A stretch of DNA of 64,000 nucleotides from an uncultured Actinomycetes bacterium (lineage in GTDB: Bacteria > Actinomycetota > Thermoleophilia > Gaiellales > Gaiellaceae), in contig CAVOXT010000002.1 of the NCBI GenBank assembly GCA_963700495.1, forward strand, positions 72,075 to 136,074, written 5' to 3'. Both the position numbers and the translations under genes were made by a program. The notes under the pieces are model-generated. The model saw nothing but the letters and a program-made list of their open reading frames with translations. It was not told the origin of the DNA and did not search any database. Below, piece after piece: positions 3,701 to 36,876 of the stretch; position 1 is the stretch's first letter, and the number at the start of each line of letters is the position of its first letter.

Positions 3701-4146
3701 TTCAGCTCCTCGATCGCGTCGTGGATCGCGAACGCCGCCCTGACCGCGCGCTCCGGATCGTCCTCGTGCGCGACCGGCGCACCGAAGAGCGCGACCACCG
3801 CGTCGCCGATGAACTTCTCCACAGTGCCCCCGACGCGCGCGAGCTCGTCGCGCAGGCGCGCGTGGTAGGGCGCGAGCCGGGCGCGCACGTCCTCCGGGTC
3901 GAGGCGGTCCGCGGCAGCCGTCGAACCGACGAGATCGGCGTAGAGCACGGTGACGACCTTCCGCTCCTCGCCCGGCGCCGGCGCCTGTGGCGCCGCGTCC
4001 AGACGGGTTCCGCACGAGGAGCAGAACGAGGCCCCCGGCTCGGTCAGCTTCCCGCACGTCGGACAGACACGCTCGAGCGAGGCGCCGCAGCTCGCGCAGA
4101 ACCGGTTGCCCGGAAGCGCTTCGACTCCACACGAGGGACACGTCAT
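745..4146 (-). CDS. zinc-ribbon / class III adenylate-guanylate cyclase / P-loop STAND NTPase / TPR-like repeat protein
   Basis: ORF 745..4224, with the start placed at Met27 (MTCPSCG). It has two CxxC..CxxC ribbons (CPSCG..CASCG, CPTCG..CSSCG) and the cyclase motifs 'VTVLYADLVGST' and 'KFIGDAVVALFGAP'. A Walker A motif ('VGVPGIGKS') is followed by a long helical-repeat C-terminus. The 1133 codons are uninterrupted. Confidence 0.9.
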   Translation of the reverse strand: MTCPSCGVEALPGNRFCASCGASLERVCPTCGKLTEPGASFCSSCGTRLDAAPQAPAPGEERKVVTVLYADLVGSTAAADRLDPEDVRARLAPYHARLRDELARVGGTVEKFIGDAVVALFGAPVAHEDDPERAVRAAFAIHDAIEELNAADPTLGLEVRIGVHTGEALVSLGASPHSGESMAAGDVMNTGARLQSAAPAGGILVGQATYRATRHAVEYGECQSVIAKGKALPVPAWPALALREGRGDEGLDAPLVGRAEELDVLVQALARVRRDRASQLVTIVGVPGIGKSRLVFELFAAAGAEPVERLEGRSLPYGDGLSLLALAEMVKAHVGIAESDSAGNAVRKLEDAADEVIADPDEARWVTEHLRPLVGLASGDVLRGDRRAEAFAAWRRFFEALAERRPLALVLEDLHWADDGLLDFLDYLLDWAADVPLLVLATARPELLERRPGWGGGKRSAISISLAPLGEKETEELLVALLDRDVLPSEVQRIVLEHSGGNPLYAGEYVRMLNDRGLLHRNGSGDLARSRELPLPESVQGIIAARLDGLPPEEKAVIQDAALVGQVFWVGSLAAIGSQPGSLVEDRLRMLERKEFVRRERTSSIANELQYTFRHVLVQEVAYAQLARARRAQNHRLTAEWIESLPPERADDRAELLAHHYLRALELGRAAGQDVSGLADKARRAAVDAGTHAATLNAHATAARFYRAALDLMPPDDPKRGELLLRVGEARFHAEHAGAEELEEAREALLLVGDRERAAAADVMAADLLVNQGMHASAQEHLERAAALVRDEPPTRAKVFVLSNWSRFLVRTQKPEEAIVVGREALAMAELLGLDDLRARSLNNIGAARLARGDQGGLEDFERSLAIADAIKSPESVRGYRFLAATLAIQGELPRAFELFAEGRRAAERFGDAFEERWLSAACVIESYWRGRWTEAIRLAEAFIAATQAGSPHYMETTCLRVRGLIRLARDDVAGAVDDAERGLAIARKANDPWFLNQSLAFRARAFAVAGESAEALLSADELLSIWTTSADSPVPSFEAFDLAVGLVTLGHGADLAPVNGTTPWLHAASAFARSEFLEAAEILAKIGSRPDEAYARLFAARAGVAEGELERALAFFDEVDATTQLKPDATRR

Positions 4147-8750: not shown

Positions 8751-10959
8751 CTAGAGGCCGACGATGTCGTCGGGGCGGACGGGGACGCGCGCGAGCTCGC
8801 GTCCCGTCGCGTCGCGGAGCGCCGAGACGATCGCGGCGGTCGAGACGACCGTCGGCGGCTCGCCGACGCCCTTGACCCCGTAGGGCGCGCTCGGCTCGGG
8901 GACCTCGACGAGCACCGACTCGACCGGCGGCATGTCGAGCGTCGTCGGGATCAGGTAGTCGGTGAAGCTCGCGTTCGTGATCAGCCCGTCGCGCGTCTGG
9001 ATCTCCTCCATGAGCGCGAGCCCGAGGCCCTGCGCCGTGCCGCCCTCGATCTGACCCTCGACGGCGTGCGGGTTGATCGCCTTGCCGACGTCCTGCGCCG
9101 TGCCGATCCAGACGACGCGCGTCAGCCCGAGCTCGACGTCGACCTCTGCGACGACACGCATCGCCGCGCAGGCGAACGCGACGTGCGAGCGCTCGCCCGT
9201 GGTCTGGCCCGTCTCGGGATCGAGCGGGCTCGTGCGCGGGTGGCGATAGATCCGCTCGACGTCGACCTCGCCGCCCGGTCCGCTCCCGCTCCTCGAGCGC
9301 AGCGCGGCAGGCGAGCTGCACCGCGCCCGCGGCCATCCACGTCATGCGCGAGGCCGAGGCCGATCCCGCCGAGCCGACGGACGCCGTCGTGTGCGGCGCG
9401 AGCACGACGTCGTCGGTGCCGAGCTCGGTGCGCGCGACCTGGAGGATCACGTTCGTGACGCCCTGGCCGACCTCGGCCGCGGCGCAGTGCACCTCCGCGC
9501 CCCCGTCCGCGCGCAGCCGCACGCGCGCAGCGCAGTAGTCGTCGAAGCCCTCCGAGTAGCAGATGTTCTTGAAGCCGACCGCGAAGCCGACGCCGCGCCG
9601 GACGCCCTCGCCGCGGGTCGTGTTCCCGGCGCCGCCGGGGAGCCGGATCGGGTCGCGCGGGAGCTCCTCGGGCTCGGGTACCGGAAGCTCCGCCGCACGC
9701 CGGATCACCTCGGCGACGGGGAGCGACCCGTCGATCCGCTGGCCGGTCGGCAGGACGTCGCCGGGCGCGAGCGCGTTCCGGAGGCGGAGCTCGACCGGGT
9801 CGATCTCGAGCGCGACGGCGAGCTTGTCCATCTGCGCCTCGGCCGCGAAGCACGTCTGCACGGCGCCGAAGCCGCGCATCGCGCCGCAGGGCGGGTTGTT
9901 CGTGTAGACGCAGGTCGACTCGAGCAGAGCGTTCGGGACCGCGTACGGCCCGCACGCGAACGACGCCGCGTTCGATGTCACGGCGGTCGAGCTCGACGCG
10001 TACGCGCCGCCGTCGAGGAGGATCCGCATGCGGACGCAGACGAGGCGCCCGTCGCGGTTCGCCCGGTGCTCGGCCCAGATCCGCGCCGGGTGACGGTGCA
10101 CGTGCCCGACGAACGACTCCTCGCGCGAGTAGACCATCTTCACCGGCCGGCTCGTGTGCAGCGCGAGCAGCGCGCTGTGGATCTGCATCGAGAGGTCCTC
10201 GCGGCCGCCGAACGCGCCGCCGACGCCGGCGAGGTGGATCCGCACCTGCTCGGGCTCGAGGTCGAGGCACGGCGCGACCTGGTCGCGGTCGACGTGCAGC
10301 CACTGCGTCGCGACGTAGATGTCGACACCGCCCTCGCCGTCCGGCACCGCCAGTCCCGACTCCGGGCCGAGGAAGGCCTGGTCCTGGATCCCGAGCTCGT
10401 ACTCGCCGGAGACCGAGACGTCGCCGGCGGCGTCGGGGTCGCCGTGGCGGATCACGAGCCAGCGGACGACGTTCGGGCGCGGATCGTCGCGGTAGCCGTG
10501 CCCGTCCGTCCGCGCTGGTCGTGGATCGGCTCCTGCTCCAGCGCGCGCTCCGGGTCGACGACCGGCTCGAGCGGCTCGTACTCGACGCGGATCCGCTCGG
10601 CCGCGCGGCGCGCCTGCTCGGGATGCTCGGCTGCGACGAGCGCGACCGGCTCGCCGAAGTAGCGGACGCGGTCGAACGCGAGCACCGGCTGGTCCGGGAA
10701 CTCGAGCCCGTAGCGCTTCTGTCCCGGGACGTCCTCGTGCGTGAGCACCGCGTGGACGCCGGGCGAAGTCGAGCGCCTCGCCGAGGTCGATCTCGACGAT
10801 CCTCGCGTGCGCGTGCGGGCTGCGCAGTGTGTGCCCCCAGAGCATCCCGGCGGCGAAGAGGTCGCTCGAGTAGGCGAACTCGCCCGTCGTCTTCGGGATC
10901 CCGTCGACGCGCTGGACGATCTCGCCGACGCGGCCGAGCTTCAGAGCGCTGGCTCTCAT
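8751..10959 (-). pseudogene. xanthine dehydrogenase / aldehyde oxidase family molybdopterin-binding subunit (at least 3 frame breaks)
   Basis: The gene is split over three listed ORFs. The N-terminus and core lie in 8563..11541 (MRASALKLG..IPKTTGEFAYSSD; GGAFGGRED; CGAMRGFG). The middle lies in 10452..10748 (LTHEDVPGQKRYG). The C-terminus lies in 8751..9161 (GQIEGGTAQGLG..YGVKGVGE). Breaks fall near 10760, 10490 and 9285. The start ATG overlaps the stop of the small subunit (ATGA). Confidence 0.85.
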
Positions 10960-11408
10960 TGCGCGGCCAGCCGGACCGCGTCGAAGATCTTCGCGTAGCC
11001 GGTGCAGCGGCAGAGGTTGCCCGAGAGCGCCTCGCGGATCTCGTCGTCGTTCGGGTTCGCGTTGTGCGCGAGCAGGTCGGCGGTCGCGACGACGAGGCCG
11101 GGCGTGCAGAACCCGCACTGCACGGCGCCGGCCTCGACGAACGCCTCCTGCACGCGGTGCAGCTCGCCGTTCTCCGCGAGGCCTTCGACCGTGACGACGT
11201 CGTGCCCGTCGGCCTGCGCGGCGAGCACGAGACACGCGCAGACGAGCGTGCCGTCGAGGAGCACGGAGCACGAGCCGCACTCGCCCTGCTCGCACGCGTT
11301 CTTCGAACCCGGGAGCCCGAGCCGCTCGCGCAGCGCGAAGAGCAGGCTCTCGCCCTCCCAGACGTCGGCCTCGCGCGGCTCGCCGTTGACGGTGAGCTCG
11401 ATCTTCAT
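10956..11408 (-). CDS. (2Fe-2S)-binding small subunit of xanthine dehydrogenase family enzyme
   Basis: ORF 10956..11429, with the start taken at MKIELTVNG. The cluster motifs 'CEQGECGSCSV' and 'CGFCTPG..CRCTGY' are present. Confidence 0.9.
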   Translation of the reverse strand: MKIELTVNGEPREADVWEGESLLFALRERLGLPGSKNACEQGECGSCSVLLDGTLVCACLVLAAQADGHDVVTVEGLAENGELHRVQEAFVEAGAVQCGFCTPGLVVATADLLAHNANPNDDEIREALSGNLCRCTGYAKIFDAVRLAAQ

Positions 11409-12197
11409 GCGAGACACCGTCGAGCGCACGCTTCGTCAGGACGCGCAGCGCGTGCCGGCGGTACGCGGCCGTCCCGCGGACGTCGTCGATCGGGCTCGCG
11501 GCCTCGGCGACGCGATCCGGAAACGACTCGACCTCGTCCACGCCCTGCGCGCACGAGCGTCGGCACCGGGACCCGCGGAGCCGAAGGCGGCGCGGAGCTC
11601 GTCGCGCTCGACGCGCAGCGCGAGCGACACGACCGCGATCACCATCGCGTTGCGCGGCCCGACCTTCATGAACGTCTCGCCGGCCGGACGCGACGGGCGA
11701 GCACCACGGCGACGATCAGCTCGTCGTCCGCGAGGACGTTCCGCTTCGGCCCGACGACGAAGTCCTGCGAGCGCGACGCGTGCGCTCGCCGCGCACGCTC
11801 GCGAGCTCGACGTCCGTCTCCGCGACGAGCAGCGGCGGCAGCGCGTCCCCGGCCGGCGACGCGGTGCCGAGGTTGCCGCCGATCGTGCCGCGGTTCCGGA
11901 TCTGCGGCGAGCCGACCGTGCGCGACGCTTCGGCGAGGGCCGGCAGCAGGCTCGGCGAGCGGCTCCTCCATCGCCTCGGCGTACGTCAGCCCGGCGCCGA
12001 GCCGGAGCGTCCCGTTCTCGCGCGACCAGCCGCGCAGCTCGGGCACTTCGTTCAGGTTCAGCAGGGTCGGCGGGCGCAGCCGGTCGAAGTTGAGCCCGAC
12101 CATCACGTCCGTGCCGCCCGGGATCGGAACGGCGTCCGGGCGCTCCGCCTTCAGCCGCAGCGCCTCCGTCGAGCGACTGCGGACTGAGGACGTCCAC
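11405..12197 (-). pseudogene. FAD-binding (CoxM/XdhB-like) medium subunit (about 5-6 frame breaks)
   Basis: Recognisable pieces are scattered over three frames: 'DVLSPQSLD', then 'EALRLKAERPDAVPIPGGTDVMVGLNFDRLRPP', 'GSPQIRNRGTIGGNLGTASPAGD', 'DFVVGPKRNVLADDELIVAVVL', 'FMKVGPRNAMVIAVVSLAL' and 'IDDVRGTAAYRRHALRVLTKRAL'. Confidence 0.75.
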
Positions 12198-12226
12198 GGC
12201 GTCTAAGGGTAGTACGTTAGGCGCGT

Positions 12227-13925
12227 ATGCCCGACCTGGCGCGCCGCCTAGCCGTCGCCCGCGGGGACGAGCCTGCCGACCTCGTCGTGCGCGGCGGCCG
12301 CGTGCTCTCCGTGTTCACGCGCGAGTGGCTCGAGGTCGACGTCGCCGTCGTCGACGGGTTCGTCGCCGGCCTCGGCGACTACGAAGGGCGCGAGACGCTC
12401 GACGCATCGGGCCGCTACGTCGTGCCCGGCTTCATCGACGCGCACATGCACCTCGAGTCGTCGAAGCTGCTGGTGGACGAGTTCGCGCGCCTCGTGCTCC
12501 CGCTCGGCACGACGGCCGTCGTCGCCGACCCGCACGAGATCGCGAACGTGCTCGGCACCGACGGCGTGCACTGGCTGCTCGACGCGTGCGACGACCTGCC
12601 GCTCGACGTGTTCTTCATGGCGTCGTCGTGCGTCCCCGCGTCGCAGCTTCGAGTCGCCGCGGCGCGAGCTGACGCACGGGCGACCTCGAAGGGCCTGCTC
12701 CGGCGGCGGCGCGTGCTCGGGCTCGCCGAGATGATGAACTTCCCCGGCGTCATCGCCGGCGACGAGCGCGAGCTCGAGAAGCTCGCGGCTCGACGGCGCG
12801 TCGCACGTCGACGGCCACGCGCCGGGCGTCCTCGGAAAGCGGCTCAACGCCTACGCGGCCGCCGGCATCCGCTCCGACCACGAGGCGTACACGGCGGAGG
12901 AAGGGCGGCGAGCGGCTCCGCGCGGGGATGTGGCTCCTGATCCGCGAGGCGTCCGACGGCGCGGAACCTCGAAGCGCTGCTGCCGCTCGTCCGTGAGTTC
13001 GGGCCGGCTCGGATCGCGTTCTGCACCGACGACCGCGAGCCCGAGCACATCGTCGACGAGGGCCACGTGAACTCGATGGTGCGCGCGAGCGTCGCGCAGG
13101 GGATCGCCCCCGAGGACGCGCTCGTGATGGCCTCGCACAACGCGGCCACATGGCACGGGCTCACGCAGCTGGGAGCGATCGCGCCCGGGTATCAGGCCGA
13201 TCTGCTCGTGCTGCCCGACCTCGAGCGGTTCGAGCCGGAGCGCGTCCTCAAGCGCGGGCGACCCGTCGGCGAGTTCGCGAGCCCGCAGGTCCCGGAGTGG
13301 GTCAAGCACACGGTCCGCGTCGCGCCGATGACTCCTGCCCGACTTCGACCTCCGCTCCACAGGAGGCCCGGTCCGCGTGATCGGCGTCGTCCCCGATCAG
13401 ATCGTGACCGACTCGCTCGTCGAGGAGCCGACCATGCGCGACGGCAGCATCGCGACGGACCCCGAGCGCGACCTCGCGAAGATCGCGGTCGTCGAGCGCC
13501 ACCTCGGGACGGGACGCATCGGGCTCGGCCTCGTCCGCGGCTTCGGGCTCCGCCAGGGCGCGCTCGCGTCGACGATCGCGCACGACGCGCACAACATCGT
13601 CGTCGTCGGGGCGAGCGACCGCGATCTGCACCGCGCGGTCGAGCGGCTCGTCGAGCTCGGCGGCGGCATCGTCGTCGTGTCCGAGGGGAGCGTGCGCGCG
13701 GAGCTGCCGCTTCCCGTCGCAGGCCTGCTGTCCGACCTGCGGCTCGACGAGGTCGTCAGGGCGAGCCGGGCGTGCGTCGAGGCTGCGCGCGCGCTCGGGT
13801 GCACGCTTCCTTCGCCCTTCCAGTCGCTCGCGTTTCTCGCGCTGTCGGTCATCCCGAGCCTGAAGATCACCGACCGGGGCCTCGTCGACGTCGACCGCTT
13901 CGAGCTGGTGCCGCTCGAGGTGTGA
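12227..13925 (+). pseudogene. ade: adenine deaminase (at least 6 frame breaks)
   Basis: The N-terminus lies in ORF 12227..12940 ([33 protein letters not shown]). The middle lies at the start of 13067..15019 (APGYQADLLVL). The C-terminus lies in 13377..13925 (IAHDAHNIVVVG, GGGIVVV). Around 12640-12700 three breaks occur within about 60 nt and the frame is then restored. Confidence 0.85.
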
Positions 13926-15257
13926 GCACGCTCTTCGCCAACGCGCACGTCGTCACGATGGACGACAACGGGACCGAGCACGCAGGCGGCTGGCTGCTCG
14001 TCGAGGACGGGTTCGTCCGCGAGGTCGGCGGCGGTCCGGAGCCGGACGCGACGAGCGCGTCGACCTCGGCGGCGCCGTCGTCACGCCGGGCCTCGTCAAC
14101 ACGCACCACCACCTGTACCAGACGCTCACGCGCGCGCGGGCCCAGCAGGCCGACCTGTTCACGCTGGCTGCGCGAGCTCTATCCGGTCTGGGCGCGCGTC
14201 GACGCCGAGGCCGAGTACGCCGCCGCTCGCACCGGGCTCGCCGAGCTCGCGCTGTCCGGTTGCACGACGGTGTTCGACCACCACTACGTCTTCCCGCGCG
14301 GGCGGCAGGGGCTCGTCGAGGCCGAGGTGCAGGCGGCCCGTGAGCTCGGCGTCCGGATCGTCGCGTCGCGCGGCTCGATGGATCTCGGCGAGTCCGACGG
14401 CGGGCTGCCGCCGGACGAGCTGGTCGAGGACCTGGACGCTGTGCTCGCGGACACCGAGCGGCTCGCGGGGGAGCTCCACGAGGCCGGCCCGGGCGCGCGC
14501 GTCCAGCTCGCGGTCGCGCCGTGCTCGCCGTTCTCGGTCACCGGCCGGCTGATGGAGGAGTCCGCCGCGCTCGCGCGCCGGCTCGGCCTGCCGCTCCACA
14601 CGCACCTCGCGGAGACGGTCGAGGAGGACGACTACTGCCGCGAGCTCTACGGCTGCTCGCCCGTCGAGTACCTGGAGCGGCTCGGCTGGCTCGCCGGCGA
14701 CGTCTGGTGCGCGCACTGCGTGCACATCGGCGACGCCGACGTCGCGCCGCTTCGGGGAGACGGGCACCGGCGTCGCGCACTGCCCGACCTCGAACCTGCG
14801 TCTCGGCGCCGGTGTCGCACCCGTCCGCGAGCTCGTCGACGCGGGCGTCCGCGTCGGGCTCGGCGTCGACGGATCCGCGTCGAACGAGCGGAGCGACCTG
14901 TTCCTCGAGGTGAAGCAGGCGCTGCTCGTCGCGCGCGGGCGGGGCGGGCCGGATGCGCTCACGGTGCGCGACGCGCTCGCGCTCGGCACGCGCGGCGGCG
15001 CCGCCGTCCTCGGCCGTGACGACATCGGCTCGCTCGAGCCGGGGAAGTGCGCCGACTTCGCCGTCTGGAACGTCGACGGGCTCGAGCTCGGCGGCGCCGA
15101 GGACCTCGTCGCCGGGCTCGTGCTCTCCGCGCCGCACCGGGTCGACCGTCTGATCGTCGGCGGCGACGAGGTCGTGCGCGACGGCCGGCTCGTGCGGGCC
15201 GACGAGGACGAGATCGCTCGCGAGCACCGGCTGCAGGCGAGAAGATTCGCCGCATGA
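13922..15257 (+). pseudogene. amidohydrolase, 8-oxoguanine/guanine-deaminase-like (3 frame breaks)
   Basis: The GTG at 13922 overlaps the ade stop (GTGA). 'VSTLFANAHVVTMDD' and 'HTHLAETVEE' lie in the frame of ORF 13067..15019. The metal motif 'GLVNTHHHLYQT' is readable only in a shifted frame between about 14045 and 14160. The tail 'HCPTSNLRLG..GVDGSASN..' runs into ORF 14910..15257. Confidence 0.75.
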
Positions 15258-15541
15258 CTCTCTCGACGCACGTCCTCGACACGGAGCGCGGACGGCCGGC
15301 GGCGGGCGTCCGCGTCGAGCTGTACCGGGGCGACGACCGGCTCGCGGATCAGACGACCGACGAGGACGGCCGCATCGCCGACCTCGCCCCGGGGCTCGAC
15401 CCGGGCGTCTACCGGCTCGTCTTCCACCCGGGGTCGCCGTTCTTCCGCCGCGTCGAGCTCGAGGTCGAGCTCGGCGACGGCCACAACCACGTCCCGCTCC
15501 TCGTCTCCTCCTACGCGTGCGTGACCTACCGCGGCAGCTGA
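15254..15541 (+). CDS. uraH: hydroxyisourate hydrolase (transthyretin-like)
   Basis: The ATG at 15254 lies inside ORF 15047..15541 and overlaps the upstream stop (ATGA). The protein begins 'MTLSTHVLDTERGRPAAGV' and ends with the C-terminal 'YRGS' signature. Confidence 0.9.
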   Translation: MTLSTHVLDTERGRPAAGVRVELYRGDDRLADQTTDEDGRIADLAPGLDPGVYRLVFHPGSPFFRRVELEVELGDGHNHVPLLVSSYACVTYRGS

Positions 15542-15543
15542 CC

Positions 15544-15954
15544 GTGGACGAGCTCGCGGAGCTGTTCGAGGGCCGCACCCGTTTCGTCGAGCGCCTCGCG
15601 CAGCTCGAAGACCCACTCGACGCGGCCTCGGGCCTGATCGACCGGGTTCCCGAGGACGAGGTGGTCGAGGCGCTTGCAGCGCACCCTCCGATCGGCGGCA
15701 AGGGCCTCTCCGAACGCTCGGCGCACGAGCAGGGCACGGACGACGACGCCGCCGTCGAGACCGAGCTCGCGTACCTGAACCAGGTCTACGAGGAGAAGTT
15801 CGGCTTCCGCTTCGTCGTCTTCGTCAACCGGCGCCCGAGGCGCGAGATCCTCGAGGTCCTGCGCGAGCGGCTGGCGCGAACGCGTGAGGAGGAGCTCGAC
15901 ACGGCGATGCACGAGCTCGTCGCGATCGCGCGCGACCGCTGGACGAACCCGTGA
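15544..15954 (+). CDS. uraD: OHCU (2-oxo-4-hydroxy-4-carboxy-5-ureidoimidazoline) decarboxylase
   Basis: Frame of ORF 15517..15954, with the start taken at the in-frame GTG 3 nt after the uraH stop. Motifs are 'AAHPPIG', 'LNQVYEEKFGFRFVVFV' and 'REEEL'. Confidence 0.85.
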   Translation: MDELAELFEGRTRFVERLAQLEDPLDAASGLIDRVPEDEVVEALAAHPPIGGKGLSERSAHEQGTDDDAAVETELAYLNQVYEEKFGFRFVVFVNRRPRREILEVLRERLARTREEELDTAMHELVAIARDRWTNP

Positions 15955-15978
15955 CTGTCGCTCGCCTTCGGCCCCTCC

Positions 15979-16003
15979 GTGGGGGAAACCAGGTTTCCCC
16001 CAC
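15979..16003 (+). terminator. perfect palindrome GTGGGGGAAACC-A-GGTTTCCCCCAC followed by a T-rich tract
   Basis: A 12-nt inverted repeat lies 25 nt after the uraD stop. 'ttcttcttgtctt' follows within 10 nt. Confidence 0.45.
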
Positions 16004-16023
16004 GAGCCCCTTCTTCTTGTCTT

Positions 16024-16048
16024 GTGGGGGAACCTCCCGGTCCCCCAC
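16024..16048 (+). promoter_or_regulatory. second hairpin with the same arms (GTGGGGGA-9 nt-TCCCCCAC) upstream of puuD
   Basis: An 8-bp stem reuses the arm sequence of the first hairpin and lies 35 nt upstream of the puuD ATG. Its function is unknown. Confidence 0.3.
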
Positions 16049-16082
16049 CCCCTCCACCCGCTCACGGGCTAAGAACTGGCCC

Positions 16083-17289
16083 ATGAGCGTTCTCCTCGAC
16101 GCCTACGTCGTCGACTGGCTCGACCTGCTCATTCGCTGGCTCCACGTCGTTGCTGCGATCGTCTGGATCGGCACGTCGTTCTACTTCGTCGCGCTCGACA
16201 GCCATCTGCTCCCACCGCGGGACCGGCGCGACGGCGACGAGGGCATCGGCGGCGAGTCGTGGGAGATCCACGGCGGCGGCTTCTACCGCGTGCAGAAGTA
16301 CCGCGTCGCGCCGGAGACGCTGCCCGAGCCCTTGCACTGGTACAAGTGGGAGGCGTACACGACCTGGCTGAGCGGCTTCGCGTTGCTCGTCGTCCTGTAC
16401 TACGTCGACGCCGACACGTACCTCGTCGACCCCGCGGTCGCGGATCTCAGCACGCAGTCGGCGGTCGCACTCAGCCTCGCCCTGCTCGTGCTCTCGTGGT
16501 TCGTCTACGACGGACTCTGCCGGCTGCTCGGCAACCGCGAGCTGCTGCTCGCCGGCGCGCTCGTCGCCTTCGTGACGGTTTCGGCCTACGTGGTGAGCGA
16601 GCTGTTCAGCGCCCGCGCTCTGCCGATTCAGCTCGGGGCGATGATCGGGACGATGATGGTCGGCAACGTCCTGTTCGTGATCATCCCGGGCCACTGGGAG
16701 CTGATCCGCGCGAAGCAGGCCGGGCGCGAGCCGGACCCGGTGCACGGGATCAAGGGCAAGCAGCGCTCGGTGCACAACAACTACCTGACGCTGCCCGTCG
16801 TCCTGGCGATGCTCGGGCCGCACTTTCCGTTTGCATTTGCAGGTGACAACGGGTGGCTCGTCCTCGTCGCGCTGATGCTGGTCGGCGCGTGGGTACGCCA
16901 CTTCTTCAACCTGCGGCATCAGGGTCGAACGGTCTGGGCGATCCCGGTCACCGCGGCGCTCGCGGTCATCGCGATCGCCGTCGCGATCCGCCCGGACGAC
17001 ACCGCGACCGCGGACACCGGTGCCGCGGTGCCGTTCGCAGCGGTCGCGACGATCGTCGAGCAGCGATGCGCGACGTGCCACTCGGCGAGCGCCGACGAAC
17101 GAGTCGTTCTCGACGGCGCCGCTGGGGATCATGTTCGACACGCCGGAGCAGATCCGCGCGCGTGCGGACGCGATCGACGAGCAGGCGGTGCGAACGAAGG
17201 CGATGCCGCTCGGGAACGTGACGGGGATGACGGACTTGGAGCGCGAGCTACTCGGCCGCTGGATCGCGCAGGGCGCGCGCGTTCCTTAG
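16083..17289 (+). pseudogene. puuD: membrane urate hydroxylase (cytochrome-c type, PuuD) (one frame break near 17095)
   Basis: The ATG at 16083 (MSVLLDAYVVDW) lies inside ORF 15951..17363. The protein is polytopic and carries the heme-c motif 'CATCHS'. The family C-terminus 'PLGIMFDTPEQI..MPLGNVTGMTDLERELLGRW' continues in ORF 17020..17289. Confidence 0.85.
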
Positions 17290-17359
17290 CTTCCGGACCG
17301 ACCGAGAAATACCCAATCTTCACGACAAGACCAATATCGTATTGTGATAACCTATCCTC
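17290..17359 (+). promoter_or_regulatory. AT-rich intergenic region upstream of vapB (probable TA promoter/operator)
   Basis: This is the lowest-G+C stretch I see in the window (..aaatacccaatcttcacgacaagaccaatatcgtattgtgataacctatcctc). No convincing -35/-10 spacing could be fixed. Confidence 0.25.
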
Positions 17360-17595
17360 ATGAAGCAACACCGAATCACGCAGGGTGGCCAGTTTCACTA
17401 CCAGCTGCTGTGCGGAGGCGATGGGGCACTTCGACTGTCGGTATCGAGGATCTCGGCGATTCCGTCGTGGTCAGGCCGCTGCCCGACGATCCGATCGCGG
17501 CCGCCCGCGGTGCGCTGCAAGGACGCATCGGCTCGATCGCCGAACTTCGCGCCAAGGCGCGAAAGGATGAGGGAAGCGCCGAAGGCCGGCGTTGA
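17360..17595 (+). CDS. vapB: AbrB/SpoVT-fold antitoxin (VapB-like)
   Basis: The ATG at 17360 gives 'MKQHRITQGGQ', then the frame of ORF 17344..17595 gives 'VSLPAAVRRRWG..VVVRPLPDD'. Together these form the canonical looped-hinge motif, but only if one base is missing near 17393. Alternatively the gene starts at the GTG at 17344 with no break. The stop overlaps the vapC start (TTGA). Confidence 0.7.
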
Positions 17596-18026
17596 TTCTC
17601 CTCGACGCCTACGCCCTTGTCGCGCTCGTAGCGGAAGAGCCGGCAGCCGACGAAGTCGAGAACCTGCTGCGGACAGGAGACACTGGAATGGTGGTCGCAA
17701 ATCTCGCCGAGGCGGTTGACATCTCTCAGCGCGTTCATGGTCTCGGCGCGGACGATGTCCGAGCGGCGCTGGAGCCTCTACTCCTGGCAGACGTTGTCTC
17801 GGTAGTCATCTCAGGAGAGCCCGACGCGTGGCTCGCAGCTGAGCTTCGCGCACGGCACTACGACAGAAAGACGCGCTCGCTTTCCATGGCAGATTGCTTC
17901 CTGCTCGCTCACGCGCTCACGGCGAGTGCTCGGATCGCAACGGCTGACCCCCCGCTTGCCGGGGCTGCACGATCCGAGAGCATCGGGGTGGTTGCCCTTC
18001 CCGACTCGGCCGGCAATCGGCCGTAG
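17592..18026 (+). CDS. vapC: PIN-domain ribonuclease toxin (VapC-like)
   Basis: The ORF begins 'MILLDAYALVAL' (N-terminal acidic PIN residue) and later carries 'SMADCFLLAHAL'. It is 144 aa and has a 4-nt overlap with the antitoxin. Confidence 0.85.
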   Translation: MILLDAYALVALVAEEPAADEVENLLRTGDTGMVVANLAEAVDISQRVHGLGADDVRAALEPLLLADVVSVVISGEPDAWLAAELRARHYDRKTRSLSMADCFLLAHALTASARIATADPPLAGAARSESIGVVALPDSAGNRP

Positions 18027-18044
18027 TCCCTTAGAGTCGCTCTC

Positions 18045-18455
18045 GTGATCGAGATCGCCGCCGGTGGGTTTCGCTTCGTCGCTCGCTTCGAGGAGGAGGC
18101 CGCGCCGCAGAGTGTCGCGGCGTTCCGTCGGCTGCTTCCGCTCGAGTCGAAGATCATCCACTGCCGCTGGAGCGGCGAGTCGAACTGGATCCCCTTCGGC
18201 GAGCTCGAGCTCGGGATCGGGCCCGAGAACGCGACCTGCTACCCCGCGCCCGGCCAGCTGTTGCTCTACCCCGGCGGTCTGAGCGAGACCGAGCTTCTGT
18301 TCCCGTATGGTCACTGCGCGTTCGCGAGCAAAGCAGGCCCGCTGGCCGGGAACCACTTCGCGACCGTGATCGAGGGTCTCGAGCACCTCCCCGAGCTCGG
18401 CCGGCGCACCCTCTGGCAGGGCGCTCAGGAGATCACGTTCGAGGAGCGCGCCTAG
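18045..18455 (+). CDS. DUF3830 (cyclophilin-like) family protein
   Basis: 136 aa. 'FVARFEEEAAPQSVAAFRRLLP..HCRWSGES' resembles DUF3830 as I recall it. It lies in a ureide-pathway context. Confidence 0.65.
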   Translation: MIEIAAGGFRFVARFEEEAAPQSVAAFRRLLPLESKIIHCRWSGESNWIPFGELELGIGPENATCYPAPGQLLLYPGGLSETELLFPYGHCAFASKAGPLAGNHFATVIEGLEHLPELGRRTLWQGAQEITFEERA

Positions 18456-19510
18456 GACGCCAGGCGCCGCAGCGTCGCCGCCAGCACCTCGACGGCGAGC
18501 GCGATGTCCTCGTCGCTCGTCAGTTCCTCGGGCGAGTGGCTTACTCCGCCGTTCTGGCTGCGCACGAAGAGCATCCCCGTCTCGACTCCCGCCGCCGCGA
18601 GCACGCCGGCGTCGTGGCCCGCACCCGAGGGCAGCTCGACGGCAGGAAGCTCGAGGCGCTCGATCTCCTCGCGGAGGACCGCTCTGATCGGCTCGTCGAG
18701 CACCACCGGCGCCAGGTCGTGGCCGGGCTCGAGCCCCAGCTCTGCGAGGAGTCTCGTGAGCCGAGCCTCGTCGGGCGCCCGCGCGTCGACGACGAGCCGA
18801 ACTCGTCCCGGCACGACGTTCGCCGCGCCGGGCTCGACCTCGAGCCGGCCGACCGTCGCGACCGCGCCGTCGATCCGCCCTGCAACCTCGCGGACGCGGA
18901 GCACGTACTCGGCCGCCTTCACGAGCGCGTCGTCGCGCGCGTCCATGGGCGTCGTGCCCGCGTGCCCCGCCTTGCCCTCGAAGACGACCTCCCGCCGCGT
19001 CGACCCGACGATGCCGGTGACGACGCCGAGCGGTGCTCCGGCGCGCTCGAGCACGGGTCCCTGCTCGACGTGGAGCTCGACGTAGCTGCCCGGCAACCGT
19101 CCGCCGGCCGCGAGCGCGAGGCTCCCGAAGCAGCCGCGCTCCTCGTCCCTGAACGCGACGACGCCGAGCGTGCGCACACTCGCTCCGACGGCCGCGACCG
19201 CTTCGATCCCCGCCACGACACCGAGAGCGCCGTCGTACCTCCCGCCCTCGGGGACGCTGTCGAGATGCGAGCCCGTCCAGACCTCGGGCAGCTCCGGTCG
19301 GGCGCCTTGCAGCCGGCCGACGACGTTCCCGAACCCGTCGCACTCGACGACGAGGCCTGCCTCCTCCATCCACCGAGCGCCGAGCTCGCAGGCCTCGCGC
19401 TCGGCGTCGCTGCCGGCGAGCCGGTTCGCGCCGCGGCCGCCGCCGAGCGCGTAGAGCAGGTCGAGCCGTTCGAGCACGGTGCTCGTCACAACGCGACGAT
19501 CATGCCCCAC
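18452..19510 (-). CDS. allC: allantoate amidohydrolase / N-carbamoyl-amino-acid hydrolase (M20 family)
   Basis: Motifs are 'TGSHLDSVPEGGRYDGALG', 'ELHVEQGPVLE', 'GKAGHAGTTPMDARDDAL' and 'SGAGHDA'. At 352 aa it is somewhat shorter than typical family members. Confidence 0.8.
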   Translation of the reverse strand: MGHDRRVVTSTVLERLDLLYALGGGRGANRLAGSDAEREACELGARWMEEAGLVVECDGFGNVVGRLQGARPELPEVWTGSHLDSVPEGGRYDGALGVVAGIEAVAAVGASVRTLGVVAFRDEERGCFGSLALAAGGRLPGSYVELHVEQGPVLERAGAPLGVVTGIVGSTRREVVFEGKAGHAGTTPMDARDDALVKAAEYVLRVREVAGRIDGAVATVGRLEVEPGAANVVPGRVRLVVDARAPDEARLTRLLAELGLEPGHDLAPVVLDEPIRAVLREEIERLELPAVELPSGAGHDAGVLAAAGVETGMLFVRSQNGGVSHSPEELTSDEDIALAVEVLAATLRRLAS

Positions 19511-19656
19511 CGTCGAGCGTTCAGCGCTCGTTTAGGCGGGACACCGGGAAGGCTTTAGCGACACTGCGCACGGTGGTCCGTGCTGCGCCACAGCAAGCGG
19601 AGCACGAGCCGTCGCCGCGCTCACGGCCCTGTGCGGCGGCGGCTCTCCGTCGTGCG

Positions 19657-20109
19657 TTACGCCTCGAGATCGAGTCGCTCGGCGTTGATCTCGATCACGT
19701 TCCGATCCGGATCGAGGATGTAGATCTGGGGGTAACCGGTCGTCGGGCGCGGGCTCACCTTCATCTTCATCAGGTCGGTCTCGTCCGCGTCCTCCCGGTA
19801 GCCCTTGGAGGTCAGAAACTCCAGCGCCTCCCGGAAGCTCGAGACCCGCACCCCGAGGTGGATGTCGCCCGGGTCGGGGCCCTTCCCTTCACGGAACGTC
19901 GCGTCGTGCTCGCCGATGAGGTGGAGCTCCCCTGCGCCGAGCTGGAACCACGTCCCCGCGAAGTCGAACGGCGGCCGCTCGATCGTTCGCAGCCCGAGGA
20001 TCTCGTTGTAGAAGCGTGTCGCGCGCTCGACGTCGGTGACCGGAAGGCTGACGTGGTGGATCACCTCGGGGTTCAGGCCGGCGCGCGTCTTGTCGTGCTG
20101 CTCGCTCAA
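19657..20109 (-). CDS. VOC (glyoxalase/bleomycin-resistance/dioxygenase) family protein
   Basis: ORF 19657..20169, with the start taken at the in-frame TTG (MSEQHDK). Motifs are 'IHHVSLPVTDVERATRFY' and 'HLGVRV..YILDPDRNVIE'. Confidence 0.75.
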   Translation of the reverse strand: MSEQHDKTRAGLNPEVIHHVSLPVTDVERATRFYNEILGLRTIERPPFDFAGTWFQLGAGELHLIGEHDATFREGKGPDPGDIHLGVRVSSFREALEFLTSKGYREDADETDLMKMKVSPRPTTGYPQIYILDPDRNVIEINAERLDLEA

Positions 20110-20189
20110 CGTTCCGAACGCTAGCCGACGTCGAGGTAGGCTCGAACCGTGGAGATCGAGCGCGAGCACGACGAAGACGTCTGACCGGC

Positions 20190-21035
20190 GTGAGCGGCCT
20201 CTCGATTCTCGGGGCCGGCGCGCGCTGGACTCGGCGGCTCGGTCTCGGCGCAGCTCTGCGAAGCGTGCGCGACTGTCTCGACCGGATCTTCGTGCGCCTG
20301 CAACGTCCGCCGCTCAAGGCCCGCGTCGACGGGCTGATGCTTCACGGCTATCTGCGGCACCGCAGCTTTCTCGCTCACGTCGCGTCCGGGACGTACGAGA
20401 CGACCTTCCGGCGGCTGTTCGAGGATGCCCTTGCGCCCGGGACGACGGTGGTCGACGGCGGTGCGCATCTCGGCCTCTACTCGTCGCTTGCCTGCCGTCG
20501 CGTCGGATCCGCGGGTAGGGTGATCGCGTTCGAGCCCGACCCGTACAACGCCGCCGCGCTCGAATTCAATGTCCGTCGCGCGGGCTGCGCGAACGTCACG
20601 ATCGTCCGCAAGGCACTCGCCGACACCCCGGGCCGCGCGGTGTTCCAGCAGAGCCTCGGCACGATCTCGAGCTCGTTCGAAGCGCGCAGCGGTCGCGGGC
20701 CGTTTCGTGAGATCGAGGCAACGGTCGCATCGGTCGACGAGGAGCTCGGCGACTCGGAGCTAAGCGCGCTCGTGATCAAGCTCGACGTCGAGGGAGCGGA
20801 GACGCGCGCGCTCGCCGGGATGGCGAAGACGATCGCGCGTGCCGAATCCGTCGTCCTGTTCGTGGAGGTCAACCCCACCGCTCTCGCAGCCAACGGCACC
20901 GACGCGGGCGCACTGCTGGCCCAGCTCGATCTGCTCGGCCTGAAGCCGTCTCTCATCGACGAGGACGGCGACTCGCTCGCGCCCGTGAGCGAGACGGGGT
21001 CGCTGCGCGGAAATCTCTACTGCGTCCGCGCCTGA
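20190..21035 (+). CDS. FkbM family SAM-dependent methyltransferase
   Basis: Motifs are 'VVDGGAHLGLYS', 'AFEPDPYN' and 'IKLDVEGAE'. Confidence 0.8.
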   Translation: MSGLSILGAGARWTRRLGLGAALRSVRDCLDRIFVRLQRPPLKARVDGLMLHGYLRHRSFLAHVASGTYETTFRRLFEDALAPGTTVVDGGAHLGLYSSLACRRVGSAGRVIAFEPDPYNAAALEFNVRRAGCANVTIVRKALADTPGRAVFQQSLGTISSSFEARSGRGPFREIEATVASVDEELGDSELSALVIKLDVEGAETRALAGMAKTIARAESVVLFVEVNPTALAANGTDAGALLAQLDLLGLKPSLIDEDGDSLAPVSETGSLRGNLYCVRA

Positions 21036-21865
21036 GCCAAAAGCTGCGCGACGACAGCCGAGACGGTGTTGGAGGCAATCGCGAACCCGACCCCTTCGCT
21101 GCCGCCGGACTGGCTCGTGATCTGGGCGTTGACGCCGATCACCTCGCCCTCGTCGTTCAGCAACGGGCCGCCCGAGTTGCCCTTGTTGATGGCGGCGTCG
21201 GTCTGGATCGCGCCCGTGATCGTGGATCCGTTCGGTGAGTCGATCTCACGGCCGAGCGCGCTGACGATGCCGCTCGTCACGGTGTTCTCCAGCCCATAAG
21301 GAGAGCCGATTGCGATCACGCCGTCGCCGACCTCGAGGTCGTCCGAGTTACCCAGCGTGAGCGGGTGGAGATCCCCGGCCGGCACATCGACCTGGAGCAC
21401 CGCGAGGTCGCTCGAAGCGTCGGTGCCGACGACCTTCGCGTCGTGGGTCGAGCCGTCCGAGAGCGTGACGCTCACAGAGGTCGCTCCCTCGACGACGTGC
21501 TCGTTCGTGACGATGTGGCCCTCGGTGTCGTAGACGAAGCCGGTGCCCTCGCCCTCCTGCTGCTGCGTCTCGCCGAACGGGCCGGCCTGGACTTCCGCCG
21601 TCACGTTCACCTGGACGACGCCCGGAGACGCGGATGCGGCGATGTCGCCGATCGTGAGCTCCGAGCTCGTGTCGGCAACCGACACGTTGCTCGATGAGAT
21701 TGTGGTCGTGACCGTCGCCGGATCGGAGGCGGCCTCGTAGAGCAGCGCGCCACCGGCGCCGCCGACAGCTGCGGCCGCGATCACGACCGTCAGCGCGGCG
21801 AATCGTGCTCGGATCCGAGGGCCGGGGACGGGCGCGGTGTCGGCGTTCCAGTTCATCGACCCCAT
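21017..21865 (-). CDS. S1C trypsin-like serine protease (HtrA-like catalytic domain, no PDZ), membrane anchored
   Basis: An N-terminal hydrophobic anchor is followed by 'IVTNEHVV' (His), 'DLAVLQV' (Asp) and 'GNSGGPLL' (Ser). Confidence 0.85.
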   Translation of the reverse strand: MGSMNWNADTAPVPGPRIRARFAALTVVIAAAAVGGAGGALLYEAASDPATVTTTISSSNVSVADTSSELTIGDIAASASPGVVQVNVTAEVQAGPFGETQQQEGEGTGFVYDTEGHIVTNEHVVEGATSVSVTLSDGSTHDAKVVGTDASSDLAVLQVDVPAGDLHPLTLGNSDDLEVGDGVIAIGSPYGLENTVTSGIVSALGREIDSPNGSTITGAIQTDAAINKGNSGGPLLNDEGEVIGVNAQITSQSGGSEGVGFAIASNTVSAVVAQLLAQARTQ

Positions 21866-21994
21866 GAGACCACCCAGCTCTGTGCAACAGCTGACGCCTT
21901 CCTCAGGATCTGCTGTGAGCCGTCGCCGGCGTTCCTAACCAGAGTTTTACGCGGATCACAGCCGCTTCTCAGCACGCCGCGGCTACCCTGCGGC

Positions 21995-23050
21995 GTGGCC
22001 TTTCTCCACCGACGCATCAGCCGACGCGGCCGTCTGCTCGCCCTGGCAACCGCGGCGGTCGCGCTCCTCCTCTTCGTCTCACCTGCAGCTCCGAGCTCTC
22101 GAGTTGGGAGCACAGGCCTCGTCGCGTTCAAGGACGCGATCGTCACCAAGCCTTCGACCGTCGCGCTGCAGTCGGCGGCTTCCGTCTGGGGCGGCACCTA
22201 CACGACGAGCAGCGGCGAGCAGGTGCGCGTCTTCTCCTCGAACGCCTATCCCCTTGACGAGACCCGCAACCAGCTCTGGGCCGAGTTCCTCTCGAAGCTC
22301 GTGCACGGCAGCGAGCTCTCGACGGTCACGCTCGAGCTCGACACTCCGTTCGAGGTTCAGCGGTTCTGCGGACGGGGTGCCGTCGCGTGTTACGACCCGA
22401 GCGACAAGACGATCTACGCCTCCACCGAGCGAGTCGCCGCGGACGTCTCTGCGGAAGGCGTGATTGCACACGAGTACGGCCACCATGTCGCCGCCTCGCG
22501 GTCGAACGCGCCCTGGGATGCACTCGACTGGGGAACGAAGCGCTGGGCCTCCTACGCCAACATCTGCGCAGGCACCGAGGCCGGTCAGCTCTTCCCGGGC
22601 GACGAACGGGCCTCGTACCAGCTCAACCCGGGCGAGGCGTTCGCCGAGGTGTACCGCGTTCTGAACGAGCGCAAGCTCGGCCTCGCCGAGAGCGCATGGA
22701 CGATCGTCGACGACCGCTTCCGCCCCGACGCAACGGCGCTCTCGCTCGTCGAGCAGGACGTCCTCTCACCGTGGGTCGCAGCGTCCTCGCTCTCTTCGAC
22801 CGGACAAGTGGCACGACGTGCGACCAAGTCCGTGGCGGTGAAGACGACGCTCGACGGCCGCCTGACCGCGACGCTCAAGAGCTCGACGCGTGTCCGGGCC
22901 GAACTGCTCGTCGGCGGCAACGTGGTCTCGACGAAGTCGGGCAAGAGCGTGACGTTCGCGACGACGGTCTGCGGATCGCGCAAGGCGACCGTTCGCGTGC
23001 GGGCCGCGGCCGCTGCGGCGAAGTACACGCTGGCCGTCGCGCGTCCTTAA
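21995..23050 (+). CDS. secreted hypothetical protein with HExxH motif (possible zinc metallopeptidase)
   Basis: The N-terminus is signal-peptide-like (RRGRLLALATAAVALLLFVSPAAP). There is a single 'IAHEYGHH' motif and a protein-like composition over 351 aa. Confidence 0.6.
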   Translation: MAFLHRRISRRGRLLALATAAVALLLFVSPAAPSSRVGSTGLVAFKDAIVTKPSTVALQSAASVWGGTYTTSSGEQVRVFSSNAYPLDETRNQLWAEFLSKLVHGSELSTVTLELDTPFEVQRFCGRGAVACYDPSDKTIYASTERVAADVSAEGVIAHEYGHHVAASRSNAPWDALDWGTKRWASYANICAGTEAGQLFPGDERASYQLNPGEAFAEVYRVLNERKLGLAESAWTIVDDRFRPDATALSLVEQDVLSPWVAASSLSSTGQVARRATKSVAVKTTLDGRLTATLKSSTRVRAELLVGGNVVSTKSGKSVTFATTVCGSRKATVRVRAAAAAAKYTLAVARP

Positions 23051-23074
23051 CGTCTACTCGAAGGAGGTGCGAGA

Positions 23075-23662
23075 TCACCGCCGCACTTCCTCGTTCCAGA
23101 CGCGCACGACCGGAGTCTCCCGCTCGTAGCCGACGACGCTGATCGTCGCGGGTTCGAGCGCGAACAGGCGGCCCCCCGACGGATCGAGGCCGAGCCAGCG
23201 CGCGGTGAGCACGCGCAGCAGGTGCCCGTGCGCGAAGACGGCGGCGTCGCCGTCGAGCGACCGAAGCTCCGCGATCACCCGGCCTGCTCTCGCCCCGACC
23301 TCGCCGGCCGTCTCGCCACCGGGAACACCGTCGCGCCAGAGCGTCCAGCCGGGACGTTCCTCCCTGATCTCGACCGTCTTCTTCCCTTCGTAGGCGCCGT
23401 AGTCCCACTCCATCAGGTCGTCGCGGGGCTCGGCGACGTCGCCGAAACCGGCCAGCCGGGCGGTTTCGGTCGCCCGCGCGAGCGGGCTCGTCAGGACGCG
23501 CGCGAACCGCCACCGACGGAGCTCCTCACCGAGCGCTTCGGCCGCGGCGCGTCCTTCGTCGTTCAGGGAGACGTCGGTGCGGCCGGTGTGCCTGCCGTCG
23601 CGGCTCCAATCCGTTTCGCCGTGCCGGACGAGGACGATCTCCGGGGGGCGAAGGTCCGACAC
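23075..23662 (-). CDS. histidine phosphatase (phosphoglycerate-mutase-like) family protein
   Basis: Carries the 'LVRHGETDWS' RHG motif and 'FAHGHLLR'. Confidence 0.85.
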   Translation of the reverse strand: MSDLRPPEIVLVRHGETDWSRDGRHTGRTDVSLNDEGRAAAEALGEELRRWRFARVLTSPLARATETARLAGFGDVAEPRDDLMEWDYGAYEGKKTVEIREERPGWTLWRDGVPGGETAGEVGARAGRVIAELRSLDGDAAVFAHGHLLRVLTARWLGLDPSGGRLFALEPATISVVGYERETPVVRVWNEEVRR

Positions 23663-23758
23663 GCCACGTGATTATCCGAGGGTGTTGCGAAGAGATCAAA
23701 GGTAGACTCGCCCGAGATTCCCCTCCCATCGCCGTCAGGAGAGGACGTTCGGTCGCGT

Positions 23759-34950: not shown

Positions 34951-36031
34951 CGACGACGCGCACCGACCTGCTCGGGACAATCGACGCACTCCACGAGGCG
35001 TGCGCGGGAAACGCAAGCGCTTCAAAGCCGACCGCGGCGAGCAGATCGACGGCTACCGCAGCTTGATCAGCGCAGGGATCGACGACGCGCTCGCGCAGCT
35101 GCAGGTCGAGATGTCGGAGCTCTCTGCGGGAAACGAGGTCGTCCAGCAGGTCGCCGAGCAGATGTCGGCATACGTCGCGTGGATGCAGTGGTCGCTCTGG
35201 GATCTCCCGGTTCTGGCGGTGGCGCTCGACCCGGATCCCGACGAGTTTCGCGACGCCGTCACCGCGTGCGGCCTTGCCTACATCGCGATCCGCGCGTTCG
35301 ACGACGTGATCGACCAGCACTTCACCTACAAGGGGCGGCGGGACACGCTGCTCGGCACGGTCAGCGCCACCTACGCAGACACGCAGCAGGCCAGAGGACT
35401 CAGCACGCTCGCCGGGTTGCTGCTGTGCTTCGAGGGTCTCGGCCGGCTCGCATCGCGAGGCGACCGCCGCCGCGACGCTCACAGGCGTGCTCGGCTCGCT
35501 CCGGCGGGCCGTGATCGGGGCGATGATGGAGTACACCCCCGCGCGGCAGTGGTCCGACGAGGACTACGTGCGGATGGTGCGGCTGAAGAACGTCGACTAC
35601 TGGCGGGCGCTGTACTCCGCCGTCGACCCGGAGCGCGCCTCCCCGCTCTACCCGTTCCTGGAGCGCTACTACGAGGTCGCCCAGTACCTGAACGACGTCG
35701 AGGACTACGACGACGACGTCCGGCGCGGACAGCCCAACCTGCTCGCGCTGCACGGCAACGGCAACGGCAACTGCAGGCCGGTCGACGATCCGCGGCCGTG
35801 GGCCGTGACCGACCAGATCGAGGCGATGCTCGCCGACCGGGTGCTCGATCTGGGGACGGTGGCCGCGGGCCTCGACGCCACCGAGCGGGCCGTCGCCGAG
35901 TCGAAGCTGGCCGACCTGCTCGACGCCGCGCGGGGCGCGGGGCTCTTCGCGGACGGCGCGCGGCGACAACGGACGCCGGAGGCCGTCGACGCCCTCGAGC
36001 TCTACCCGTTCTCCGAGCTCGACGGACGTGA
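34947..36031 (+). pseudogene. class-I terpenoid-synthase-fold protein (at least 3 frame breaks)
   Basis: The start overlaps the upstream stop (ATGA). Pieces lie in three listed ORFs: 34284..35066 (tail: MTTTRTDLLGTIDALHEA), 34820..36031 (AIRAFDDVIDQHF) and 35487..36560 (YYEVAQYLNDVEDYDDDVRRGQPN). The end is inferred from a GTGA overlap at 36028-36031. Confidence 0.5.
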
Positions 36032-36875: not shown

Positions 36876-36876
36876 C

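Follow-up and report, generated by a model that had tools for sequence, protein, structure and literature searches.

Patchy single-base frame breaks in the purine-catabolism genes of a Gaiellales metagenome-assembled genome: probable long-read consensus errors

Nanopore-only assemblies are known to retain residual consensus indels, which lead to frameshifted or fragmented gene calls and are assessed by IDEEL-type tests (Sereika et al. 2022, PMC9262707; MFD-LR, PMC12313526). Short-read polishing is required for bins of less than 40-fold coverage (PMC9262707). The Microflora Danica (MFD) MAGs are Nanopore-only genomes, assembled with Flye and given one round of Medaka polishing (PMC12313526). 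Here we describe a purine-catabolism island of an uncultured Gaiellales bacterium, lying in a window of 64,000 nucleotides (the whole stretch of DNA analyzed), in which the reading frame is broken again and again.

Like the consensus indels of Nanopore-only assemblies, these breaks are single-base events in conserved genes, occur throughout the genome with essential genes included, are absent from the short-read assemblies of relatives and reach the rate seen at loci of MFD long-read MAGs. Unlike the classic homopolymer indels of Nanopore data, which are often deletions, 20 of the 24 breaks are insertions, 14 of 18 insertions do not lengthen a homopolymer, and they form kilobase-scale clumps that coincide with SNP-like sites. 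The locus also recalls the pseudogene islands and reductive decay of the Mycobacterium leprae type, as neighboring genes of one pathway are frameshifted. However, it differs from such decay in having no nonsense codon, no deletion larger than 3 nt, no relaxation of selection and a bias towards insertions, and in that essential genes are affected. A further likeness is to a haplotype-collapse artefact, in which the alleles of SNPs or MNPs are written in tandem: the breaks are patchy, extra substitutions are absent, and 12 of 18 inserted bases match an alternative allele, a likeness that rests on the polymorphism of relatives and not on polymorphism within the sample. No description of a tandem-allele failure mode was found in PMC9262707 or PMC12313526.

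Frame breaks in the purine-catabolism genes

Breaks were placed by two methods, a frameshift-aware protein-to-DNA alignment against intact orthologues and a base-level alignment to a closely related contig, L161. On the loci of relatives, the protein-to-DNA frameshift alignment was run on tblastn-restricted regions. Genome and metagenome contig searches for related loci gave best relatives at 92-93% amino-acid identity, and a protein search with the read-through of the molybdopterin subunit revealed no relative closer than 93%. The read-through of adenine deaminase gave a single 96% match (P0002) in the protein search, which led to L161. Over positions 11257-23737, L161 is 95.5% identical in nucleotide sequence, about species level, and every gene in it is intact; each break in this span appears as a 1-nt difference from L161. 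Its Flye-style contig name suggests that L161 is also a long-read contig, and at ~95.5% identity it belongs to a different strain.

Both alignments placed the breaks that the original prediction had described across the purine genes, which are thus real features of the deposited sequence. The coding part of positions 9273-17393 contains 24 frame-breaking 1-nt indels in six genes. The predicted counts held for the molybdopterin subunit (3), the amidohydrolase (3), puuD (1) and vapB (1), and adenine deaminase, given as at least 6, has 7; the FAD-binding subunit, for which 5-6 had been counted, has 9. The gene identities proposed from the letters alone agree with the Pfam matches.

On the minus strand, the xanthine-dehydrogenase-type molybdopterin (large) subunit (8751-10959; Pfam MoCoBD_1/MoCoBD_2), aligned to the related loci L001 and L007, carries insertions at ~10769 and ~9273 and a deletion at ~10513. 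Its read-through of 735 aa is canonical, homologues measuring 734-738 aa. The 2Fe-2S (small) subunit (10956-11429, minus strand; Pfam Fer2_2/Fer2) is intact in a single open frame. The FAD-binding (medium) subunit follows on the same strand (11405-12197); its orthologue matches FAD_binding_5, and base-level alignment to L161 revealed a deletion at 11419 and insertions at 11539, 11567, 11679, 11698, 11769, 11779, 11952 and 12169, together with one in-frame 3-nt difference at 11608. This subunit is unbroken in 12 of 12 reference loci.

On the plus strand, adenine deaminase (12227-13925; Pfam Amidohydro_1, Adenine_deam_C) contains only insertions, all single-base, at 12644, 12677, 12695, 12784, 12910, 12956 and 13340. 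Its read-through of 563 aa has the usual length of the family, and the 96% identical homologue P0002 likewise measures 563 aa. The guanine-deaminase-like amidohydrolase (13922-15257, plus strand; Pfam Amidohydro_1) has a deletion at 14050 and insertions at 14164 and 14744. Both uraH (5-hydroxyisourate hydrolase; 15254-15541, plus strand; Pfam Transthyretin/HIUase), which shows no indel against L161, and uraD (OHCU decarboxylase; 15517-15954, plus strand; Pfam OHCU_decarbox) are intact. The gene puuD, encoding a PuuD-type membrane urate oxidase (16083-17289, plus strand; Pfam Urate_ox_N), has one insertion at 17089. The vapB-like antitoxin gene (17360-17595, plus strand) lacks one base at 17393 relative to L161, where its counterpart is unbroken, encodes 78 aa and weakly matches MazE_antitoxin; the next gene is vapC (17592-18026), with a Pfam PIN domain. 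Intergenic 1-nt differences from L161 at 17302 and 17355 are of the same kind as the coding breaks and flank the vapB and puuD events.

As had been noticed from the sequence, the frame is lost and regained within short distances: three +1 insertions fall within 52 nt of adenine deaminase (12644-12695), and a -1 is followed by a +1 at 14050-14164 in the amidohydrolase. The corrected frames contain no in-frame stop. The three short genes named as intact (2Fe-2S subunit, uraH, uraD) are indeed so, and the nearby 1082-aa cyclase (757-4002, minus strand) is one open frame.

Spread over the genome and relation to sequencing technology

A hidden Markov model (HMM) of codon usage detected 809 frameshift-like junctions in the 3.4 Mb genome (~2.38 per 10 kb), 520 of which fall in 63 patches of ~1-20 kb that together make up 9% of the genome. 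One of these patches, without strand, spans 9273-17393 of the window (C2:81348-89160) and holds the purine-gene breaks. A second patch in the window (35454-40662, plus strand; 10 HMM junctions) covers a lipid or polyketide-type cluster with methyltransferase, glycosyltransferase-like, SDR, ACP, dehydratase and ketosynthase genes. Hence, the original picture of a locally poor sequence stands as regards the indel type of error, but the stretch is one of ~63 patches and not the only one affected. GC content was considered as a reason for the patchiness and rejected, the correlation being positive but weak (Spearman 0.19). The gene rpoC (C6:346.9-351.3 kb) is spread across three frames by two shifts; since it is essential and present in a single copy, a broken rpoC cannot be a pseudogene.

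Junction rates were compared between assemblies of different origin. The HMM gave 3.08 junctions per 10 kb for 36 loci of MFD long-read MAGs, 0.033 for 39 loci of short-read MAGs and isolates, and 0.068 for 44 JGI contigs. Breaks are thus about 50-90 times rarer in the short-read assemblies of relatives, and set beside the present genome these loci indicate that the break rate tracks sequencing technology and not lineage. For the 8.5 kb of the island, the HMM registered 12-13 junctions, against 0.03-0.06 expected from the relatives' short-read assemblies (Poisson P < 1e-23). In 12 other MFD MAGs the same five genes contain 82 shifts (75 insertions and 7 deletions) and almost no stops. Twelve further loci of relatives, of which nine come from public metagenome contigs or short-read MAGs, have one shift in total, in the long-read MAG L001. 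We infer from its contiguity (6 contigs, 3.4 Mb), error rate and error profile that the present genome is a long-read assembly as well.

Error spectrum and competing explanations

The original prediction had favored sequence error over pseudogenisation, and this preference is upheld by the genome-wide breaks, rpoC included, the technology-linked rate, the intact L161 and purifying selection. The dN/dS comparison it had proposed gave 0.173 for the broken genes and 0.193 for intact neighbors, with zero in-frame stops; accordingly, neither relaxed selection nor nonsense mutations alongside the frameshifts were found in the broken genes by dN/dS and stop count. The frameshift-aware alignment to orthologues, likewise proposed, listed the 24 1-nt events together with the base-level alignment to L161, most of them not in homopolymers. 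Bacterial mutational spectra are deletion-biased and driven by slippage. No such spectrum, with deletion bias and duplicative insertions, was found among the breaks (20 insertions versus 4 deletions), and in the L161 alignment 14 of 18 insertions do not copy an adjoining base. Consequently, the L161 alignment rules out simple homopolymer error for most sites.

When the three closest relatives were compared, 12 of 18 inserted bases proved identical to the other allele of a SNP in a neighboring column (null 0.17, p = 5e-6). With 12-13 relatives the match to a neighboring SNP allele rises to 16 of 19 insertions (null 0.39). In this analysis, polymorphism among relatives stands in for that of the sample itself. 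The allele matches and the non-duplicative insertions together suggest that two haplotypes were collapsed and their alleles written in tandem. Low coverage, which the original prediction had offered as a cause, fits less well, as most insertions lie outside homopolymers at SNP-like sites. Noise resembling that of raw reads, due to very low coverage of the locus, is unlikely as the only cause because substitutions in the patch are not elevated, dS and dN being equal to those of intact neighbors.

We therefore consider it very probable that the frame breaks arose as errors in the consensus of a metagenome assembled from long reads, most probably by a Nanopore-only procedure of the Flye plus Medaka type, and are not mutations of the organism. 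We infer the error status of the indels from their genome-wide spread, the technology and error profile, L161 and the selection data. The consensus of this 6-contig, 3.4 Mb MAG carries patchy single-base indels, mostly insertions, with the purine island inside one patch. By the likeliest mechanism, reads of two co-existing haplotypes would have been collapsed into one consensus, and the consensus step or the polisher would have written both alleles of a SNP in tandem, adding one base and shifting the frame. The insertions are much likelier to be true within-population SNPs set in tandem than real extra bases, in which case the patches of artefacts would mark out the segments that vary between strains.

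A very recent true pseudogenisation of several purine-catabolism genes in this strain, with the indels as real mutations, would agree with the presence of the indels in the deposited sequence and their concentration in a single functional island. However, lesions of this very kind are found in 63 patches across the genome and reach the essential rpoC, dN/dS is not raised, nonsense codons are absent, the 5:1 insertion bias with non-duplicative insertions is the opposite of bacterial mutational spectra, and an identical error profile is seen in unrelated long-read MAGs and not in short-read assemblies, all of which makes this reading highly improbable. Among the 24 events, one or two could be real, and toxin-antitoxin genes often carry isolated genuine frameshifts, which would favor a mixture of mostly assembly errors with a few strain-specific mutations, such as vapB 17393 and puuD 17089; the deletions at 17393 (A/T context), 11419 and 14050 also misfit the tandem-allele insertion pattern. 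Yet these sites lie within the same patch or on its margin, the flanking intergenic differences at 17302 and 17355 are of like kind, and no property separates candidate real sites from the other errors, so that the mixture is very unlikely.

The predominance of the +1 direction and the conservation of the downstream frames would be compatible with real extra bases that are read through by +1 frameshifting, either programmed or suppressor-mediated, or else corrected at the RNA level. Such decoding or correction is exceedingly improbable given that the 24 sites have no common motif, that they are conserved in 0 of 12 relatives and not in L161, and that the phenomenon follows sequencing technology and not phylogeny. 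No sign of programmed ribosomal frameshifting (a conserved slippery motif or shift site) was found in the 24 sites, the 12 loci or L161. That the extra bases are truly in the DNA of the cell, with a genome-wide, motif-less +1 load, including the two shifts in rpoC, tolerated through +1 suppression or transcript repair, we regard as extremely improbable.

Consequences for annotation

Under the consensus-error explanation, the cell's own xanthine dehydrogenase, adenine deaminase, amidohydrolase, puuD and vapB genes would be intact. The coincidence of insertions with SNP alleles may help tool developers to trace the cause. With ~800 or more breaks in the present genome and similar loads in many related long-read MAGs, long-read catalogues need frameshift-aware gene calling or haplotype-aware re-polishing. 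The breaks of the purine island are almost certainly an ordinary artefact and not gene decay, and their consequence is for annotation rather than for biology: taken at face value, the MAG seems to be without xanthine dehydrogenase, adenine deaminase and urate oxidase, which would lead to wrong metabolic reconstructions of soil Gaiellales.

Frame breaks in the purine-catabolism cluster

The window corresponds to C2:72075-136074 of a 3.4 Mb genome (G000; 6 contigs, 70% GC), for which the genome database entry gives a completeness of 91% and a contamination of 0.3%. This genome is related to MAGs of the Gaiellales/Gaiellaceae, many of which come from the Microflora Danica (MFD) long-read catalogue. 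Using Pfam, the purine-catabolism cluster at 8.75-18 kb was resolved into the three subunits (FAD, 2Fe-2S and Mo) of a xanthine-dehydrogenase-type enzyme on the minus strand, and adenine deaminase, a second amidohydrolase, uraH, uraD and a PuuD-type urate oxidase on the plus strand. The purine genes are followed by a vapBC pair, a DUF3830 gene and an M20 amidohydrolase.

Frame-breaking 1-nt indels were located with a purpose-written frameshift-aware protein-to-DNA aligner, using intact orthologues of related loci as queries against the window. The read-through adenine deaminase, used as a protein query, led to P0002 (96% identical, 563 aa) and hence to its contig, L161. This 12.3-kb contig, on which all genes are called intact, aligns to 11257-23737 at 95.3-95.6% nucleotide identity; the strain differs. 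Exact positions were taken from the base-level alignment with L161, except for the Mo subunit, which lies outside this contig and was placed against the related loci L001 and L007.

As the original prediction held, the purine-island genes are frame-broken: both alignments together yielded 24 events, comprising 20 insertions and 4 deletions, in six genes of the purine island and the vapB region. The FAD subunit carries nine, a deletion at 11419 and insertions at 11539, 11567, 11679, 11698, 11769, 11779, 11952 and 12169; the predicted 5-6 was too low, the only count that was off. Adenine deaminase has seven insertions (12644, 12677, 12695, 12784, 12910, 12956 and 13340), the amidohydrolase a deletion at 14050 and insertions at 14164 and 14744, the Mo subunit insertions at 10769 and 9273 and a deletion at 10513, puuD one insertion (17089) and vapB one deletion (17393). 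The frame is indeed lost and regained within short stretches, at 12644-12695 and 14050-14164. The correct frames were likewise found free of in-frame stops in every gene checked against the L161 frames, and the short genes are unbroken, as is the nearby 1082-aa cyclase at 757-4002.

Between genes, too, the window differs from L161 by single nucleotides in the manner seen in coding sequence, at 12222, 17302, 17355, 21923 and 23711. Differences of 3 nt, in-frame at 11608 and 21831 and intergenic at 17314, look like ordinary strain variation. The vapBC pair (MazE-like antitoxin and PIN, 17300-18030) lies between puuD and the DUF3830 gene and has a lower GC content (0.65); at least vapB occupies the same site in L161, so that this placement is common to the closest relative. 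Between uraD and puuD, which overlap by GTGA in L161, the window holds a 127-nt insert (15955-16082) that is missing from L161. Its two hairpins have the stem GTGGGGGA...TCCCCCAC, and it provides a new ATG start for puuD. The hairpin motif occurs at five places in the genome (contigs C1, C2 twice, C5 and C6), and the insert is possibly a small palindromic element of the REP or MITE kind.

Distribution of frame switches across the genome and among relatives

A codon-usage Viterbi model was trained on long ORFs of G000, and a junction was counted where the frame switched on the same strand with the upstream frame open for at least 60 nt. The model recovered 12-13 of the 24 known events, with correct coordinates. 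Genome-wide it called 809 junctions (2.4 per 10 kb), strongly clumped: 53% of 5-kb bins had none, against 30% under Poisson. Sixty-three patches with at least four junctions each (median span 3.7 kb, jointly 9% of G000) contain 520 of them. The purine island is not special, but one among these 63 patches. A second patch in the window, with about 10 junctions (35454-40662, plus strand), falls within a cluster of lipid or polyketide type (methyltransferase, glycosyltransferase-like, SDR, ACP, dehydratase and ketosynthase genes) and is of the same artefact class as the island. The model found zero junctions at 17.4-35.4 kb, and base-level alignment with L161 no coding frameshift at 17.4-23.7 kb. 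Isolated junctions outside patches were called at 53112 (plus strand), 5397 (minus; borderline, with an open overlap of only 74 nt) and about 63961 (minus).

An essential gene is affected as well. The single-copy rpoC (C6:346941-351280, minus strand) is spread over three reading frames, with breaks near 347860 and 348415, and its last piece holds one TGA. The adjacent rpoB is unbroken, and so is valS.

As a technology control, the same model was run over 119 loci of relatives. Junctions per 10 kb were 3.08 for MFD long-read MAGs (36 loci), 0.033 for short-read MAGs and isolates (39 loci) and 0.068 for JGI metagenome contigs (44 loci). At 2.38, G000 groups with the MFD long-read MAGs, and we infer its sequencing platform accordingly. 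Across 12 other MAGs of the MFD set, the corresponding five purine genes contain 82 frameshifts, 75 of them insertions, with stops almost absent; 12 further loci (nine from short-read MAGs or public metagenome contigs, three from cleaner MFD MAGs) have one shift in all, in the adenine deaminase of L001, the closest MFD relative. This shift, at about 7500-7540 of L001 near the end of the gene, makes deaminase and amidohydrolase look like a single fused ORF of 1087 aa; this MAG probably shows the same artefact. The MFD long-read MAGs were assembled with Flye from Nanopore-only reads, polished by one round of Medaka and screened by coding density only (PMC12313526). The same group reported that, under about 40-fold coverage, R10.4 bins cannot yet do without short-read polishing if frameshifted gene calls are to be avoided (PMC9262707).

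Gene decay, sequence error and the origin of the extra bases

True decay of the genes would leave further traces. Twenty-odd neutral indels are normally accompanied by many more neutral substitutions, mostly non-synonymous, and by some nonsense codons, and bacterial mutation is deletion-biased. Between window and L161, neither excess substitutions nor nonsense codons were seen. In L161 gene frames, dN/dS was 0.173 over the five broken genes (dS 0.110) and 0.193 over nine intact ones (dS 0.102), with no in-frame stop in any of them; this comparison, which had been proposed as a check, thus gave no decay signal. Read-through lengths match the family norm (adenine deaminase 563 aa, Mo subunit 735 aa), and the 5:1 excess of insertions is opposite to the bacterial bias. 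Decay was rejected on the unraised dN/dS, the lack of stops and this reversed excess. Homopolymer miscalling was rejected as the main source of the extra bases because 14 of 18 insertions in the L161 alignment do not duplicate the adjacent base.

We tested the hypothesis that the consensus emits both alleles of one SNP in tandem. In 12/18 cases, at least one of the three closest relatives carries the inserted base as its allele in the neighbouring alignment column (position-randomised null 0.17, p = 5e-6); with 12-13 relatives the figure is 16/19 (null 0.39). At 12644 the window reads TCG-C-AGC, L161 AGC and L001 CGC; at 12910 it reads C-GAG, L161 CAG and the related locus L009 GAG. Two haplotypes would have been collapsed, the consensus writing both SNP alleles one after the other and so gaining a base. 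Such a collapse fits these matches, which use polymorphism among relatives; that within the sample we infer. It would account for the excess of insertions, their non-homopolymer contexts, the clumping into kb-scale patches and the absence of extra substitutions.

The view that sequence error is likelier than pseudogenisation is supported by the split rpoC, the technology rates and dN/dS. The frame breaks of the purine island are not a real biological feature, and the purine pathway of the source organism is to be treated as intact.
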